From: an uncultured Verrucomicrobiae bacterium
GTDB taxonomy: Bacteria; Chlamydiota; Chlamydiia; Chlamydiales; Rhabdochlamydiaceae
DNA: 64,000 bases
Assembly: GCA_963718565.1 (NCBI GenBank)
Contig: OY970364.1
Location: 1,920,001 to 1,984,000 of the forward strand
Direction of reading: 5' to 3'
Part shown: piece after piece, positions 3 to 51,376 of the stretch
Position numbering within the stretch: position 1 is the first letter of the stretch
Layout of the letters: every line of letters starts with the position of its first letter
Notes under the pieces: generated by a model
The model's input: the letters and a program-made list of their open reading frames with translations, nothing else
What the model was told of the DNA's origin: nothing
The model's database searches: none
Made by a program: the position numbers and the translations under genes

Positions 3-743
3 ATGCAAAAAGGAGGAGCAGGGCGCCTTTTTATCGTCTTTTTGGATGCGACCCATCATGACTATAGCTGGCCGAGTGAAATGTCCCAGTTTTTTCCTTT
101 TGAGGAGAAAATCAATTATATTAGCGCAGCGATGAGTAAGAAAGGATTGGAAAAAATCAAAAATCGTTATCGAAATGCCCTGTATTTTATCGACGATCAA
201 TTCGGGAAATTCCTCAAGGCGTTGGAAAGCACGCCGGGGGGAAAAGATGCCGTTGTCGTCATTACGGGAGATCATGGGGAAGAATTTTATGAACATGGAA
301 ATTTGTTTCATGCATCTTCTCTGAGCGAACCTCAGATGCATGTTCCTCTCTACTATCGGTTTGGACAGAATGAGGCATTGCATACAAACTGCAAGATGAC
401 TTGCCATATGGATATTTTCCCCACGCTTTTTCATTATTTGATTGGCGAAGATCTTATGGGCGATGTGTTTCAAGGAGAATCGATTTTTAAAACAAATCGT
501 TGGCCTTATACCATTGTTGCACGTTTCAATGCAATTAGCAGTCCTCATGAATTTTGTATTCACAATGGAAAGAACAAGCTGCTGGCAACCTTTAGCGATG
601 AAAGAAATATCTTTAATTCAAGGGGGCTAAAGATTATCTCGACGAAAAATTGCCAGGATGAAACAATTGTAAAAGAACTCAATGCTATCCATGATGAATT
701 CGGCCCTGCCCTTGAGCGGATTTTTCCTACGAATCTTAAGTAA
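3..743 (+). CDS. Sulfatase/alkaline-phosphatase superfamily protein, C-terminal part (5' truncated by window)
   Basis: THHDY, YRNALYFIDDQFG, VVITGDHGEEF, HVPL and HMDIFPT motifs. Confidence 0.8.
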   Translation: MQKGGAGRLFIVFLDATHHDYSWPSEMSQFFPFEEKINYISAAMSKKGLEKIKNRYRNALYFIDDQFGKFLKALESTPGGKDAVVVITGDHGEEFYEHGNLFHASSLSEPQMHVPLYYRFGQNEALHTNCKMTCHMDIFPTLFHYLIGEDLMGDVFQGESIFKTNRWPYTIVARFNAISSPHEFCIHNGKNKLLATFSDERNIFNSRGLKIISTKNCQDETIVKELNAIHDEFGPALERIFPTNLK

Positions 744-1827
744 ACTTCTCCTGTCTTTGGTTTTTTGCGCGGGCCATATCTCGCTTGCCTTTGCTGACGA
801 TGGCGATGGGTGCCCTCTGCCATCCCTGTACGACCGTCCTCAGACCTGGAAGGACCGTGTGCGCATCAACACGCTTAAAAATTTTGATCAATTTTTAAAT
901 TGGAGCTTTAGTGAAAAATATAAAACATATGTGCTGACAATTCCTATTGAGGAAAAGAAAATCGAAATGGACGTTCTGGAAATGCGAACGTTCGTCGAGA
1001 ATTATGGCTATTTTGCCTGGAAACATCCCATGATCGCCAAAGTCACCACGGCAAAAGAAGATCTAGAAATCGTCAACTGTCTTTTATGCACTCTGTATGA
1101 GAAAGGAAAGAATCCGGATTATTTGCAAATCGCTGTTGCTGAAGTGCTCACAAAAGCATTAGCTTACCACGATCTAAACATTGGCCAAATGGTCACGATT
1201 CCTATTGAAGTGAAGGGTAAACTTAGCCTTGAACGATTTATCGTCGAGCGAATTTTTAATCTTTGGAAAGGCATGCCCGCTTTCGGTCTTGTCCCGGAAC
1301 GCAATGATGTTGACTCTATCCTTCTTTACCGAGGCACTGACTTTTCTCTAGATTCTCAGCGCGGATGGGCATCTCTGATGAGTGATCTCGATATCGCTGG
1401 CCCGGGATTTTCAGCCTTTCAACATTCCCAGAAAAAAATTAGCTATTGGTTAAAGTCGATGAGGTCTCAAGGCAAACCTGCTCGAATTATGGGATTCAGT
1501 TTAGGAGGAGCTCTGGCAGCCTATACCTTTATTTATGAAAATCAATGGCTGTCCGATCGCGGATCGATTTCGATTTGTGCTCCGGGTGTTAGAGAGAAAG
1601 TGATTGCAGAATGGGAGATGATGGCGCCGAAAAGACGCGCCGGATTAATGAGCTTTATCAATAGTGGCGATGTCATTTCAAAAGTAGGAAAATTGTTTGG
1701 AAATGTTTACGTTCTTTCGACAGATGAGACTTATACGCCCTTGACGGCTCACACGATATTGATGAGCAGCGAACCTTTTTTTAACAAAGCAAAGGTCGAT
1801 GTGGAACAAGAAAACGAAAGCAGGTAA
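682..1827 (+). CDS. Secreted alpha/beta hydrolase, lipase class 3-like
   Basis: Signal-like N-terminus; YRGT, GFSLGG nucleophile elbow, GDVISK, late His. Confidence 0.7.
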   Translation: MLSMMNSALPLSGFFLRILSKLLLSLVFCAGHISLAFADDGDGCPLPSLYDRPQTWKDRVRINTLKNFDQFLNWSFSEKYKTYVLTIPIEEKKIEMDVLEMRTFVENYGYFAWKHPMIAKVTTAKEDLEIVNCLLCTLYEKGKNPDYLQIAVAEVLTKALAYHDLNIGQMVTIPIEVKGKLSLERFIVERIFNLWKGMPAFGLVPERNDVDSILLYRGTDFSLDSQRGWASLMSDLDIAGPGFSAFQHSQKKISYWLKSMRSQGKPARIMGFSLGGALAAYTFIYENQWLSDRGSISICAPGVREKVIAEWEMMAPKRRAGLMSFINSGDVISKVGKLFGNVYVLSTDETYTPLTAHTILMSSEPFFNKAKVDVEQENESR

Positions 1828-46430: not shown

Positions 46431-46946
46431 TCATAATTGACTAATATTTTTATTTCGATCTGCTTTTTTTTCTTTCTCGATGGCTTCGGTCCCAAGCAAC
46501 GAGGTGGTGTAAACAAGGCCTCCCAGAATTTTGTAGTTTAGTTTAACTTTTTTGTCATCTGTACCATCAGCTTTTTTGGCATCTGTACCATCATCATTAA
46601 TCACTCTACTTTTAGACATACGCTGACAGATTTCAGATAAATGTCGCTTGAAAAGATTTGACCAAAAGATACGCTTGGTAACACCACATAATGACCTACA
46701 AAGACTAAGGAACTTCATGGCTTCTCGAGGTGTCTCTGTCTGTGGAATAATATGATGCGCCCAGATGTCGGGTGTTGTGAGGGGAGTAGGTAGTTGCGCC
46801 CAGCGGTCGATTAGCCTGTCCATCTTAGTGTTAAAAAGAGAATCCACATGGCTTCTAAGGCTGTCAGGAATATTAAGGTTATTAAAGATGTCAAGAATAT
46901 TAAAGTTATCAAAAATTTTGTTAAATGAATTTACATTTGAAGTCAT
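46431..46946 (-). CDS. Hypothetical effector-like protein
   Basis: aggag SD; TTGAAT-N17-TAAAAT upstream; N/S-rich N-terminus; internal 24-bp duplication. Confidence 0.65.
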   Translation of the reverse strand: MTSNVNSFNKIFDNFNILDIFNNLNIPDSLRSHVDSLFNTKMDRLIDRWAQLPTPLTTPDIWAHHIIPQTETPREAMKFLSLCRSLCGVTKRIFWSNLFKRHLSEICQRMSKSRVINDDGTDAKKADGTDDKKVKLNYKILGGLVYTTSLLGTEAIEKEKKADRNKNISQL

Positions 46947-47184
46947 AATTGTCTCCTAAATAGATTATTGTTTATATTAACAGTCTTAATTTTAAAAAAT
47001 TTACTAATATTATTCAATTTATTTTTTTTAAAATTTTTAAAATAGAGCAAAATAAACTATAAAAGATTGATTTCCAGCAGGTTATGATAACCATAGTTTG
47101 GGGTTCTGCGATGGCGGCGACTGCCTGTTGGGGCTTGTAACAGAATCCCTTGAACTTATTCAAACCTGATTATATATTATCAGA

Positions 47185-47607
47185 ATGAACAAGTTTTTAA
47201 GCATTCAGGAAGCAGCAAAATGTTTGGGAGTTTCTCCACAAACACTCCGCCGATGGGAAAGACAAAAGAAAATCGTTCCCTGTCATCGCATACAGGGCGG
47301 CCAACGCCGCTATAGTCTCACTCAGTTACAGCCATTTAATTGCGGAGATAAAACCTCTGATCGTCTAACTGTTGCCTACGCAAGAGTTTCGAGTCATGAT
47401 CAAAAAGAAGATTTACAACGACAAGTCCATATGTTAGAAATTTACTGCTCTGCAAAAGGATGGGTGTTTTCAGTAACCAAAGACCTCGGTTCCGGGATGA
47501 ACTATAATAAACGTGGGCTAAAACAACTGCTTGAGCAAAATGGTTCAAGAAGCCATAAGAACAAACAGCTTTTGGCCAACCTTCAAAATGCGGTCGCCAA
47601 TGTCTAA
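47185..47607 (+). pseudogene. tnpA: IS607 serine recombinase TnpA with apparent in-frame internal deletion
   Basis: MerR-like HTH, YARVSS, DLGSGMN; jumps LLEQ to NGSRS, lacking the usual KDRL...ELxxD segment. Confidence 0.85.
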
Positions 47608-49066
47608 AGAGAATCTGGTTCTTAAGCTGAGAATTGAAGCAGACCCTCAAACAATTTCTGAGCTCGATGGGCAATCGCGGATCTGTAATTGGCTTTATAA
47701 TCATCTGCTAGAAAAAAGCCTGGAACTCAAGCGGGAATTTATCCATTCCGGCAACCCGGAGGCATCAAAGACCCTCTATACAGAAAGAGGACTCAGAAAT
47801 GAACTTCCAAAACTCAAGGAAGAGCACCCCTTTCTAAAAGTCGTCCACTCTTCTCCATTAAAAAATACCGCTTTGAGACTTAGTGAAGCAATCCGGGTTC
47901 ATCAAAAATCAAAAAAAGGAAAACGGAAAGGCAAACAGATGGGTTGGCCCAAATTTCGGGCCTGGAAACGGGACTGGTTTTCTCTTTTTTACGATGAACC
48001 AGAAAAAGGTTTCAAGATTCACGGCAAAGCCTTGTTCCTCTCCCTTGGAATGGGCCAGGACCGCAAGCGCCGCTTCCTCACTCTCGAATTACCCGAAGCA
48101 CATCTCCTCAAAGACAAAACCCCACGCAACTTGCGCATTATCTCCGAACTGGGAACCTACTATGCCATTTTTACCATTCAGAAAGAACTCCCCATCCGAA
48201 AACCCATTTCTAAAATCCTCGCACTCGATCCCAATCACAAAAATCTCGCCTATGGTGTCGACACAAGTGGAACAGCCATTGAGATTGCATCTCCTTACTG
48301 GCTCAAAACTTACGATAAACGCCTGGACGAACTAAAAAGTAAAAGAGACCGCTGTGATAAAAAATCTAAAAAATTCCATGTTCTGGATGAAAAAAGCAAT
48401 CCCACAAGAAAAGAATTCCATCTTCCTTCCAGGCAATGGAGAAAATACGATCATGCCCTAAAAAGCGCACTGCGTAAACGCCGAGAACAGACCAAGACGT
48501 TTATGTTTACAAGCGCACATCGCCTTTTCCGAAATTACGACTGCATTGGAATCGGAGACTATACACCAAATGGCGAAGGCATTACTAAACCAATGCGGCG
48601 AGCGATGAATAACCGATCCTTGATTGGACGTTGGAAAAACACCCTCTCCTGGGTAGCTCGAAAATCGGGAAAAACCTTTATTGAATTCGACGAGAAAGGG
48701 ACAACCCGGACCTGTAGCCACTGCCTGCGGATTGAAGAGCGGGGAATCCCTGTCTCATTGAGACAATGGCAATGTCCACAGTGCAAGACCGTTCACATTC
48801 GCGACGAGAATGCCGCAATTAACGGCTTGAGAAAGATCTTGCGAGATCTTTCAGCAAAAAATGAAGGAGGATATCCTTCAATAGTGTCTGGCTCAGACCT
48901 CGCTTTTATCCAAAAGCGATGGGCCTGGTGTGTTTTGCCTAATGGTGTACATGTGACACCGTGGGGGCAAGACAGCAAAGCAATTTGCAGCACCAGGAAA
49001 TTAAACCGAGGGCATGATAGCCCTCGATCAAAAGTTGATAATTTGGTTATATATGATCAGGTTTGA
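47600..49066 (+). CDS. tnpB: TnpB RNA-guided endonuclease with rearranged RuvC-II
   Basis: GWPKFR, ALDPN (RuvC-I), IGIGDY, DEKGTTRTC, CSHC/CPQC Zn finger, RDENAAIN (RuvC-III). Confidence 0.93.
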   Translation: MSKENLVLKLRIEADPQTISELDGQSRICNWLYNHLLEKSLELKREFIHSGNPEASKTLYTERGLRNELPKLKEEHPFLKVVHSSPLKNTALRLSEAIRVHQKSKKGKRKGKQMGWPKFRAWKRDWFSLFYDEPEKGFKIHGKALFLSLGMGQDRKRRFLTLELPEAHLLKDKTPRNLRIISELGTYYAIFTIQKELPIRKPISKILALDPNHKNLAYGVDTSGTAIEIASPYWLKTYDKRLDELKSKRDRCDKKSKKFHVLDEKSNPTRKEFHLPSRQWRKYDHALKSALRKRREQTKTFMFTSAHRLFRNYDCIGIGDYTPNGEGITKPMRRAMNNRSLIGRWKNTLSWVARKSGKTFIEFDEKGTTRTCSHCLRIEERGIPVSLRQWQCPQCKTVHIRDENAAINGLRKILRDLSAKNEGGYPSIVSGSDLAFIQKRWAWCVLPNGVHVTPWGQDSKAICSTRKLNRGHDSPRSKVDNLVIYDQV

Positions 49067-49104
49067 TCAAGTTTTGAAGAGCGGCATGTTTTCCCAAGGA
49101 CTAT
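48880..49104 (+). ncRNA. Putative omegaRNA scaffold plus 3' guide
   Basis: Hairpins tcgctttt/aaaagcga, cctggtg/caccagg, ggtgt/acacc, cgagggc/gccctcg overlapping the tnpB 3' end and right end. Confidence 0.6.
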
Positions 49105-49273
49105 CGGAAACGCGGAACCCATCCTCTTCACAAGCAGCATTGGGAAAAAGCTACTCTTTTTCAAAAATCTAAGGCGATCATGGGTTATGTGAGTGATCGA
49201 GAGAAAGCTATAAAAGATTGATTTCCAGTTGGTTGTGATAACAATAGTTTGGGTTCTCAGAGGGTCAAAATAT

Positions 49274-49441
49274 GGTACGTCCTCAAAAACCTATGACATT
49301 CAGTGCTTGCCATAGGTCTCCGAGGAAGTATGAATTGAGCGGCTTGTAAAGTCGGAACAAAACGCCCAGACCCATTAATAAAACTTTCGCTTGATAACAG
49401 AGCACCCTATATTTAGACTGCTCTGGCATGAACTCGAACAA
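49274..49441 (+). repeat. Duplicate of 12041-12281: deleted family-A MITE plus cyclase promoter
   Basis: Near-identical sequence including TTGATA-N17-TAGACT at 49391-49419. Confidence 0.9.
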
Positions 49442-49459
49442 ATGCCTTTCTAAGATCCC

Positions 49460-50034
49460 TTCAGAACTGCACGCTGTTCCTTGGTTTTAGAGAGATGATT
49501 GGCTCAACCGGCTTGAAGAACATATGGGGAAAAAGTACCGAAAAAAGAAGGGGCTTAACCAACTGCTGAATAGCTTAAGGGTTGAAGGCAAACAGCTGCG
49601 ACAGCAATGCATTGAAGCGGGATTGGTTGGTTTTATCAGCTTGGAAGCATGTTGGTAAGGCAGAGGTGCATGAACTATATGACCAACTGGTTGCAATGAA
49701 AAGCACAAGCCCAGGGATTAATGAAGTCATTGCTTCATTTTCCAAATACCGCGAAGAAATGCTAAAAGCGCTTGATCATCCCGGCCTTCCCCTGCACAAT
49801 AATGACAGTGAGCAAGATATCCGAGGTGTGGCTAAACGAAGAAATATCTCTGGCACTACCAAAAGCGTAGAGGGCAGACAATTTCGAGACGGCCTATTGA
49901 CGCTCAAGCAGACATGCGCCAGACTTGGCGTGAGCTTTTGGGAGTATTTGAGTCGGTGGTTTCGAGGGGATCCGATCGATTTAGCACAATTTGTTCATGA
50001 GCGTTATCAAACAGCCTCTCTGGCCACACCTTGA
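49460..50034 (+). pseudogene. IS66-family transposase remnant
   Basis: LPLHNNDSEQDIR...RNISG...TLKQTCARLGVSFWEYL. Confidence 0.8.
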
Positions 50035-50256: not shown

Positions 50257-51376
50257 TACTCTAGAAAATTGAAGTCTGGAGAGGATTGAGTTCAATTGTT
50301 TGGAAATTGTCGTTAATTCGCTTTTTCAGCATGTCTTTTAAATTAATAACGCCAGTGTTGAAAAAATCTCTAATTTTCTCAGTAAATTCATTGAATTTTG
50401 AATACAGTGTATTATAAGTAACACACTCTCTCATAACTTTCCATAAACGCTCAATAGCATTCAAATTTGGGGAATACGGAGGTAAGTAGTGTATTTGAAT
50501 TTTGGTTTGGCTATCCAAATATTTTTGCACTTCCTTATTCTTGTTTGATCTGCCGTTGTCTAAGATTAAGTGGATTTTTTTTGCATCTGTATTAGCCGCT
50601 AACGTTTGGAGAAAATCGACCGCACTTGCAGCATCCACAGTGCTATATTCCTTCGTCACGACTTGCATTGCAGTCAATTCAATGGCACCAATAAAATGCA
50701 ATCGCTCTTGCTTAGCGGTTGTTCCTAATGTCTTTATTTCGTTTTTTAGGATCCACCCAGCCACAGACTGGCTCTGATACTCAGGGTGTACAGCATCTCC
50801 AAAGAAAATTTTCTCGCCTTCTTGGAGACCGGCTTTCAATTCATTGTATTTTTTAAGGAACGCAGCTTGTTTTTCGGGATCGAGCTTTCCTGGTACTTTG
50901 ATTGGATGTTTATAAACAAATCCATGCCTCTTCAACCAATTTGTCATACCAGCCACAGTGTATTTCACTTGATATGCGTCTAGAACGTAGAGACAAATTT
51001 TGCTCATTTTGAGATACGTTATTTGACTCAAATGTCTCCTCAGCGCATCTTCTTGGTCTAGGGTTAACTTGGAGGCCTTTCCCAAATGTGGATCATTGAT
51101 AGTTTTTTGCTTGGCATCGTATTCTCTTTGATAATCATAAACGGACGACTCGCTAATTCTTAAAATCGCCGCTATTTCCCCTGGACTGTGGCAATCATCC
51201 CTACCTAAAATGACGCATACACGGTTCCGTTCGTTGACATCTCTTGTTTTTTTTACAAGCTGTTCTAAATATAAACGCTGCTCATTGGACAACTTTTGCA
51301 TAGAAGCATTATCCACTATCGCTGAAATATTTTTTAGGGAAATTTAAAATTTTACAGAATCCAATCATGAATAGTA
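50257..51376 (-). mobile_element. IS630-family insertion sequence, copy 2
   Basis: Reverse complement of 21992-23111; TA on both sides. Confidence 0.93.
50261..51316 (-). CDS. IS630 transposase, identical protein to 22052-23107
   Basis: Identical translation. Confidence 0.96.
   Translation of the reverse strand: MDNASMQKLSNEQRLYLEQLVKKTRDVNERNRVCVILGRDDCHSPGEIAAILRISESSVYDYQREYDAKQKTINDPHLGKASKLTLDQEDALRRHLSQITYLKMSKICLYVLDAYQVKYTVAGMTNWLKRHGFVYKHPIKVPGKLDPEKQAAFLKKYNELKAGLQEGEKIFFGDAVHPEYQSQSVAGWILKNEIKTLGTTAKQERLHFIGAIELTAMQVVTKEYSTVDAASAVDFLQTLAANTDAKKIHLILDNGRSNKNKEVQKYLDSQTKIQIHYLPPYSPNLNAIERLWKVMRECVTYNTLYSKFNEFTEKIRDFFNTGVINLKDMLKKRINDNFQTIELNPLQTSIF

Follow-up and report, generated by a model that had tools for sequence, protein, structure and literature searches.

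An IS607-family insertion sequence with an alternative-glutamate TnpB and its omegaRNA in a rhabdochlamydial genome

Introduction

Does a TnpB protein with a glycine in place of the canonical RuvC-II glutamate still belong to a complete RNA-guided system, and does its presence in a chlamydial genome point to the origin of the Fanzors of eukaryotes and giant viruses? These questions are raised by an IS607-family insertion sequence (IS) located in a 64,000-nt stretch of DNA, here called the window, which comprises positions 1,920,001-1,984,000 of the forward strand of contig OY970364.1 (assembly GCA_963718565.1). The source is an uncultured Verrucomicrobiae bacterium with the GTDB lineage Chlamydiota; Chlamydiia; Chlamydiales; Rhabdochlamydiaceae, and its own genome has a size of 2.28 Mb. 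An initial annotation, made from the letters of the window alone, had described an IS607 TnpB with a Fanzor-like RuvC site, an omegaRNA, a target-adjacent motif (TAM) and a guide, and had proposed that the host lineage is a plausible conduit between bacterial TnpB and Fanzors. Positions preceded by C1 are those of the host's own genome, and all others are those of the window.

We conclude that the region 47130-49084 is occupied by an IS607-family IS in a non-autonomous copy, which encodes an RNA-guided DNA endonuclease, a TnpB of the alternative-glutamate class known from the literature, together with its omegaRNA, and we estimate the probability of this reading at about 0.85. The rearranged active site is already published, under the names Ealt (alternative glutamate; Yoon et al. 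2023, NAR, PMC10711439), TnpB2 (Jiang et al. 2023, Sci Adv, PMC10530073) and RIIr; in the description of the RIIr branches the largest, RIIr-5, has the glutamate replaced by glycine and a compensating glutamate elsewhere (Altae-Tran et al. 2023, PNAS, PMC10691335).

Results and Discussion

The predicted active site of TnpB

The tnpB product matches the NCBIfam model guided_TnpB (NF040570) with 137.4 bits against a cut-off of 100, the match covering positions 2-389 of the 389 in the profile, and Pfam PF07282 (Cas12f1-like_TNB) is also above its cut-off. The protein includes a predicted RuvC D-E-D triad composed of D210, E365 in the alternative position and D402, as well as a CxxC...CxxC zinc finger. 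Both features that distinguish the Ealt, TnpB2 and RIIr proteins are found: the residue at the canonical RuvC-II position, G319, is not acidic, and a glutamate is separated by six residues from the first cysteine of the finger (E365-x6-C372). All of these residues, from ALDPN at 48227 through the glycine at 48554 and the glutamate at 48692 to CSHC/CPQC and RDENAA, had been located in the initial annotation, which had also recognized an IS607-linked TnpB with an arrangement known from Fanzors, and every one of these assignments was confirmed on the sequence. The Ealt/TnpB2 clades of bacteria have the same arrangement. When the protein was compared with the PDB chains using phmmer, G319 aligned with the glutamate of ISDra2 TnpB (IGTEHL), while the counterparts of E365 and D402 were residues 467 and 501 in chain 9b0l_P, which is the Fanzor2 of Acanthamoeba polyphaga mimivirus (ApmFz2).

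The arrangement is conserved among relatives. A set of 73 near-full-length relatives was assembled from 67 proteins of 340-620 aa found among the best 150 cluster representatives (1.84 billion proteins), six close homologues and the window protein. The canonical RuvC-II site is a glycine in 70 of them and the alternative glutamate is present in 69. In a 61-sequence alignment that extends down to 25% identity, nine positions are invariant: D210, G319, E365, the four cysteines, R401 and D402. One of the relatives has been listed before, as row 811 of Table S1 of Yoon et al., where it is labelled unknown bacteria; the sequence (MSKENIVLKL..., ALDPNHKN, FDEKGTTRTC) identifies it as a member of the same family.

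An AlphaFold2 model of the protein (pLDDT 85.5, pTM 0.78) places D210 and G319 at the ends of strands 206-211 and 315-319, respectively, and E365 immediately behind strand 359-363. This predicted placement of E365 matches the position of the relocated glutamate, which is described as lying on beta-5 instead of beta-4 of the RNase H fold (PMC10691335). Together with the homology detailed above, the model leads us to propose that TnpB is an RNA-guided nuclease that would use the triad D210/E365/D402; the activity ascribed to it in the initial annotation is likewise a prediction.

The omegaRNA

The last 245 nt of the element (48840-49084) fold at -98.8 kcal/mol, with a z score of -7.5, and none of 200 shuffles folded as well. 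An alignment of 17 elements yielded a consensus structure of 61 pairs in eight helices between 48891 and 49082, with compensatory changes in 30 of the 61 pairs; 95.5% of the cells are paired, compared with 35-48% when the partners are slid by 1-3 columns, and none of 500 column shuffles attained any of the five observed covariation measures. The stacked hairpins that had been read as an omegaRNA are thus real, and the covariation strongly supports a structured RNA that is located at the 3' end of the gene and runs to the right end of the transposon, as is the case for TnpB systems. An outer helix of four pairs, GCUC/GAGC, is invariant across the alignment and, by analogy, may be the counterpart of the pseudoknot or closing element of ISXfa1. 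Upstream of the conserved core there is a variable candidate 5' hairpin, the stem of which is kept with a changed sequence in most of the 17 elements and is missing from one.

The 3' boundary of this RNA coincides with the end of the element. The seven full-length copies in the host's own genome (see below) end at 49084, and in BLAST comparisons across species the homology stops there, or at most two bases away, in the 16 loci where the match reaches the end, which bears out the end at GAGC-GG deduced initially; GAGCGG is kept in every element with an aligned end. The elements of two metagenome-assembled genomes (MAGs) labelled Anaerolineae (L034 and L036), whose TnpB proteins are 47-48% identical to that of the window, still end in ...GGGAGAGCGG, so that conservation of the terminal GAGAGCGG of the right end, which is at the same time the 3' scaffold of the RNA, reaches far outside the chlamydial clade.

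In the host's own genome, three independent derivatives that are truncated or internally deleted retain the segment that extends from approximately 48867-48881 through 49084; in terms of the element, the retained part starts at position 1738, 1750 or 1752 and includes the right end. This clustering could reflect either selection for the unit formed by the RNA and the right end or a deletion hotspot at its 5' edge, and it fits a location of the 5' edge of a unit under selection at about 48867-48881.

The scaffold lies almost wholly within the 3' end of the tnpB open reading frame (ORF). In the last 30 codons the variability at the three codon positions is 0.72/0.61/0.66, the excess at third positions being absent, and in codons 431-458 a weak third-position excess is found, considering unpaired columns only (n = 8-11). 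The AlphaFold2 model includes a confident beta-hairpin in the C-terminal tail, at residues 439-454 (48914-48961), exactly where the DNA encodes a hairpin of the omegaRNA. Since the third-position variability shows little selection at the protein level in this part, the predicted beta-hairpin may only echo the covariation of the RNA in the alignment.

Limits and copies of the element

The coordinates of the features are collected in Table 1. A search of the host's own genome identified seven full-length copies with 99.4-100% identity, the limits of which are exactly those of the window element. Besides these, there are one copy interrupted by about 1.1 kb and approximately ten truncated or internally deleted derivatives. 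The flanks are unrelated across 11 of the host's own junction pairs. Of 20 sequencing runs, all in the form of contigs, four public ones (X1, X5, X6 and X20) were compared with the element; their contigs break at 47130 and at 49084, and the sole joint found in them is an odd internal one in X1, which connects 47254 to 48576 with 16 other letters in between.

As is the case for IS607-family elements, a GG is found at both junctions and no long target duplication is present; the element starts with GGGG and finishes with GAGCGG, and its flanks are unrelated in other genomes as well as in the host's own. The first GG of the left GGGG may be derived from the target and TAM-like. Subterminal inverted repeats are probably the region bound by TnpA.

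Table 1. Features of the IS607-family element and related sequences
Feature	Position	Strand	Remarks
IS607-family element	47130..49084	+	1955 bp; left end GGGGCTTGTAAC..., right end ...TTTTGAAGAGCGG
GGGG at left junction	47130..47133	+	holds the GG crossover dinucleotide
Subterminal inverted repeat, left arm	47153..47182	+	30-nt arms, 83% complementary to 49044-49073
tnpA remnant, 140 aa	47185..47607	+	MerR-type helix-turn-helix and first part of serine-recombinase domain
tnpB, 488 aa	47600..49066	+	ATG at 47600; overlaps tnpA stop by 8 nt
RuvC-I Asp210	48227..48229	+	GAT in ILALDPNHKN; motif DPN
Gly319 at canonical RuvC-II Glu position	48554..48556	+	GGA in CIGIGDY
Alternative catalytic Glu365 (predicted)	48692..48694	+	GAG in FDEKGTTRTCSHC; 46 codons after G319
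Zinc finger C372-x2-C375 ... C392-x2-C395	48713..48784	+	CSHC...CPQC
RuvC-III Asp402	48803..48805	+	RDENAA
Variable 5' hairpin	48862..48880	+	upstream of conserved RNA core
omegaRNA (reRNA) scaffold	48891..49084	+	eight helices, ends GAGC-GG; almost wholly inside 3' end of tnpB ORF
Predicted guide, 20 nt (catgttttcccaaggactat)	49085..49104	+	flank-derived, different at each copy; length assumed
Deletion derivative	C1:1529877-1530768	-	own genome, outside the window
Deletion derivative	C1:1190630-1191481	-	own genome, outside the window
Deletion derivative	C1:888343-888560		own genome, outside the window

The interrupted copy, C1:189202-192278, is an eighth and otherwise full-length one; its insertion of about 1.1 kb is located some 35 nt before the right end, inside the omegaRNA, and at the joint a duplication of six element bases is found. 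On either side of the window element there is one unit of a 49-nt direct repeat (90% identity), the first at 47054-47102, 28 nt before the left end, and the second at 49205-49253, 120 nt beyond the right end. Since the other copies lack this repeat, it does not belong to the IS; a duplicated promoter or a small repeat could account for it. An IS630-like transposase gene coding for 351 aa is found on the opposite strand 1.2 kb downstream of the element (50261-51316), an identical gene is present at positions 362-1417 (-) of locus L011, and the neighbourhood between 49500 and 51700 includes further transposase fragments.

The deleted tnpA and the split copy population

A point that had gone unnoticed in the initial annotation is that the gene upstream of tnpB is an internally deleted tnpA. 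Its product matches Pfam MerR and positions 2-58 of 145 of Resolvase, and with the NCBIfam model transpos_IS607 it scores 112.7 bits over positions 2-114 of 187 only, compared with 214 bits over positions 2-187 of 187 for the 206-aa TnpA of other copies. It is in this full form that the element encodes, upstream of tnpB, the MerR-type serine-recombinase TnpA characteristic of the IS607 family. The window gene has lost 66 codons in frame at 47539/47540, and two other copies have 198 extra bases at the corresponding point and encode an intact 206-aa TnpA each. Among the best 120 TnpA homologues listed almost all have 204-212 aa, 206 aa being the usual length, and there is no viral or eukaryotic name among these 120 matches. 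The deletion removes the segment HKDRLLRFG, which we take to hold the conserved catalytic arginines of serine recombinases.

The same deletion is found in all seven full-length copies, and as a consequence these and the window copy are non-autonomous. On the other hand, tnpB is uninterrupted in all seven, with no internal stop and 0-5 amino-acid differences. The two copies with an intact tnpA have the reverse structure in that neither has a tnpB. In one of them (C1:47850-49047) tnpB is interrupted by an IS630-like element, the same one that lies downstream of the window copy, and in the other an internal deletion fuses tnpA to the omegaRNA region and the right end; the omegaRNA is kept in one of the two. 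The full-length copies are nearly identical, with tnpB intact and tnpA deleted, and they most likely spread once the deletion was in place, by means of a transposase that would have been supplied in trans.

The guide, the TAM and a proposed mechanism

The right end always reads C-GG, and in ISXfa1 the GG that follows the right end is a component of the RNA scaffold (PMC10711439); therefore the guide is taken to begin at 49085. The guide at 49085-49104 given in the initial annotation follows from this boundary and stands. In the same ISXfa1 study the TAM is GGG, CGG is not cut, and TnpA inserts at SGG; for ApmFz2 the TAM is reported as GGG (PMC11832414).

At the left junctions, a base followed by GGGG is found in 11 of 11 of the host's own copies and in 14 of 15 foreign cases. 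In the own copies this base reads t, c, a, a, a, a, g, g, t, c and t, G thus occurring at two of the 11, and it varies just as much at the 15 junctions of other genomes. Of the TAM TTGGG/TGGG proposed initially, the T residues are therefore only the private flank of the window copy. The G-run is plausible, by analogy and from the empty-site comparison that follows. The copy at C1:1713918 lies within a repeat of about 115 nt, and seven intact copies of this repeat read cctgGGGGagatt at the corresponding site. This is explained most simply by a target that already held GGGG and a crossover that used the last GG, which would leave a GGG(G) TAM before the guide; this is, however, a single and imperfect case in which the right flank also departs from the repeat consensus. 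Within the putative G-run TAM, GG can be taken as certain and GGG or GGGG as likely, judging by ISXfa1, ApmFz2 and this one comparison.

The repeat itself is palindromic and resembles a miniature inverted-repeat transposable element (MITE). It is present in more than 20 copies (for example C1:2062191-2062307, C1:1244323-1244438 and C1:320391-320507), one of which hosts the IS607 insertion at its central GGGG. Because the flank there departs from the consensus, the guide of that copy would mismatch the other copies of the repeat. When 13 flank guides were searched over 16 nt with at most two mismatches, only matches at chance level or borne by repeats were obtained, two of them behind GGG.

Taking these features together, a transcript through tnpB would be processed to an RNA of about 190-220 nt consisting of the scaffold and, as guide, a 3' extension that starts at 49085. 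Loaded with it, TnpB would cut DNA in which a G-rich TAM is followed by the flank sequence. Such a target would be the empty site that remains after loss of the element, so that cleavage would favour its retention, while the occupied site would present C-GG before the guide, which is not a TAM in ISXfa1. Movement would depend on a serine transposase acting in trans, as the window tnpA lacks 66 codons of the catalytic domain and two sister copies code for the 206-aa TnpA.

Alternative explanations

The replacement of the canonical glutamate by glycine could mean that TnpB is catalytically dead or has been repurposed, for instance as a regulator, and inactivated TnpB derivatives are among the proteins described in PMC10691335. 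We consider this very improbable: the alternative glutamate and both aspartates are invariant throughout the 61-sequence alignment, the guide-RNA scaffold is under structural selection in an element that has recently become multi-copy, and proteins with the same arrangement are reported to cleave DNA, namely ApmFz2, whose E467A mutant does not, and one TnpB2 that was also assayed (PMC10530073). The family in this genome might also be taken for a decaying relic with neither current mobility nor function, considering that tnpA is deleted in all seven full-length copies, that many fragments are truncated and that two copies are cut by other insertions. The near identity of the copies, the intact tnpB in each of the seven and the two intact 206-aa tnpA genes speak against decay, as does the multiplication that the form with the deletion must have undergone since losing these codons, and we consider a relic very improbable.

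Several observations weigh against an active guided element with an alternative-glutamate TnpB. Neither a flank-to-flank joint, as an empty site would have, nor a circle joint was seen in the contigs of X1, X5, X6 and X20, and the metatranscriptome contigs of X20 belong to a relative at 90-95% identity with a full tnpA and cannot show a transcript. The proximity of E365 to both aspartates is predicted from homology and from the positions of strands in the model. Should GG alone make up the target, most copies would be left unguarded by a strict GGG TAM, as G precedes the G-run at just two of the 11 own junctions. Finally, no Rfam family matched at E <= 1 over 46900-49500. In a search for empty sites among 20 related genomes, the DNA flanking one copy (L003) was shared by none, and the match in one of them (G001) was to the element itself only, with 75-77% identity.

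Distribution and relatives

A FastTree phylogeny of 104 sequences, rooted on one distant match, was built with fragments under 330-400 aa omitted; it took every fourth match from the search that named the kin of two DPG-type relatives (P0134 and P0135). The window TnpB groups tightly with MAGs most of which are labelled Chlamydiae; a few bins of this clade bear the label Verrucomicrobiae, Acidobacteriota, Oligoflexia or Peregrinibacteria. The clade is embedded in a broad radiation with DPN at RuvC-I, in which Anaerolineae-labelled sequences come next and a small DPG subclade is likewise nested. Outside the chlamydiae, the nearest relatives bear the labels Anaerolineae, Bacillaceae and other bacteria. 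The matches in Protein Atlas were all generic TnpB clusters, those of Bacillota, Cyanobacteriota and Actinomycetota.

Within the phylum, which is described as poor in TnpB (PMC10691335), the element was found in 12 of 301 genomes and 10 of 165 genera (E <= 1e-40), with up to 78-87% identity between families. The combination of a patchy spread and high identity between families suggests transfer among chlamydiae. Seven loci (L015, L016, L017, L023, L024, L025 and L030) have elements 77-93% identical in MAGs labelled Oligoflexia, Verrucomicrobiae, Acidobacteriota or Peregrinibacteria, which suggests either that chlamydial contigs were mislabelled or mis-binned or that the element has recently been transferred across phyla. 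There are 4-5 genes for TLC nucleotide transporters in the host genome, and none of 14 control genomes had a match. Such transporters typify obligate intracellular bacteria, which makes an intracellular host plausible.

The question of a link to Fanzors

The fingerprint of Fanzors and pro-Fanzors is DPG at RuvC-I combined with the alternative glutamate (PMC10711439). The window TnpB has the latter and DPN instead of the former, so the RuvC site described initially as Fanzor-like is so in its alternative glutamate and in the loss of the canonical one, and not in its RuvC-I motif. Among the 73 relatives the motif is DPN in 48, DQN in seven, DLN in four and DPG in only three, with DFN and DMN also occurring.

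The proposal that this lineage is a conduit, that is, a direct relative or a donor of the Fanzor2 proteins of giant viruses and eukaryotes, draws on shared features (the IS607 context, the proline after the RuvC-I aspartate, the glycine at the canonical site and the alternative glutamate), on the TLC transporters of the host, and on the amoeba "melting pot" origin of Fanzor2 already put forward in PMC10530073. The comparisons run the other way. In addition to the rarity of DPG among the relatives, the best Foldseek match of the model is ISDra2 TnpB (8h1j; TM-score 0.84 normalized by the target, 20% identity), and ApmFz2 ranks 18th (16% identity, TM-score 0.55-0.57) and SpuFz1 50th; the family profile likewise gives an E-value of 7e-33 for ISDra2 and 1.3e-27 for ApmFz2, and the giant-virus homologues in BFVD are only 14-16% identical to the window TnpB. 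These indirect measures do not favour the chlamydial lineage as one linked to Fanzors. The nearest non-chlamydial relatives are bacterial, and in the published tree it is the cyanobacterial DPG proteins that adjoin Fanzor2 as its closest bacterial kin (PMC10711439). The conduit idea thus receives no support from these comparisons, and we regard a special link of this kind as very unlikely. A scan of viral_contigs with the family alignment yielded three loci, which were counted as false, as the two examined (L056 and L058) were the same patatin-like ORF. For P0134 and P0135, the named kin are Ktedonobacteraceae and Thermus, and neither matched ApmFz2 in the PDB at E <= 0.01.

Most of the nearest relatives have asparagine instead of glycine two residues after the RuvC-I aspartate. 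A wider proposal is that the DPN relatives, together with those having DQN, DLN, DFN or DMN, constitute a third RuvC-I class of alternative-glutamate TnpBs that the published DPG and D{P}G patterns fail to capture through this motif, and that the chlamydial IS607 branch, patchy among obligate intracellular symbionts, is a reservoir within protist hosts that exchanges with the Fanzor2-type elements of giant viruses, in one direction or the other. As a whole we think this very improbable.

The current understanding of the origins of TnpB and Fanzors is thus left unchanged, and the element can be considered a good new example and not a new kind of system. Its value lies in being a clean and fully annotated natural IS607 system with an alternative-glutamate TnpB, in which the ends, a guide RNA backed by covariation and the guide are defined; with 488 aa and a delimited scaffold, the protein could be tested directly as a compact nuclease. 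It also draws attention to the DPN(HKN) form of RuvC-I, which dominates a large bacterial radiation and would be missed by motif searches that demand a glycine at +2. The split population, with seven copies having tnpB intact and tnpA deleted and two having tnpA intact and no tnpB, provides a natural setting in which to ask how transposase and nuclease cooperate in trans.

Comparison with known systems

The published Ealt, TnpB2 and RIIr proteins share with the window TnpB the glycine in place of the canonical RuvC-II glutamate, the glutamate that precedes the first CxxC by six residues, the zinc finger, and the RuvC-III motif RD(E/x)N. The difference is found at RuvC-I, which in the window TnpB is D-P-N instead of D-Phi-G or D-P-G; as both published regular expressions require a glycine at +2, the window TnpB would go unmatched through this motif. 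Its placement with RIIr-5 is one by description only.

ISXfa1 of Xylella fastidiosa resembles the window element in its IS607 context, the GG at the right junction, the several stem-loops and an RNA, about 150-200 nt long, extending beyond the right end. The comparison was made by description and not by sequence, and the GGG TAM and the GG of the scaffold are carried over to the window by analogy.

ApmFz2 comes from an IS607-type transposon context and has a G-rich TAM (PMC11832414, PMC10530073), and its triad, as seen by cryo-electron microscopy, is Asp324/Glu467/Asp501 (PDB 9B0L, PMC11832414). The alternative glutamate and the RuvC-III aspartate occupy the same aligned positions in the window TnpB. 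On the other hand, the two proteins are only 16% identical, and the window TnpB, whose model opens with a strand at residue 3, has neither an N-terminal extension nor a nuclear localization signal, and reads DPN where Fanzors are reported to have DPG almost always.

ISDra2 TnpB (PDB 8H1J, 8EXA) is like the window TnpB in the order of its domains and in the logic of its omegaRNA, and is the best match in overall fold. It differs in having the canonical glutamate, a Y1 TnpA (IS200/605), a TAM given as TTGAT (cited in PMC11832414) and a length of 408 aa, which is shorter than the 488 aa of the protein described here.

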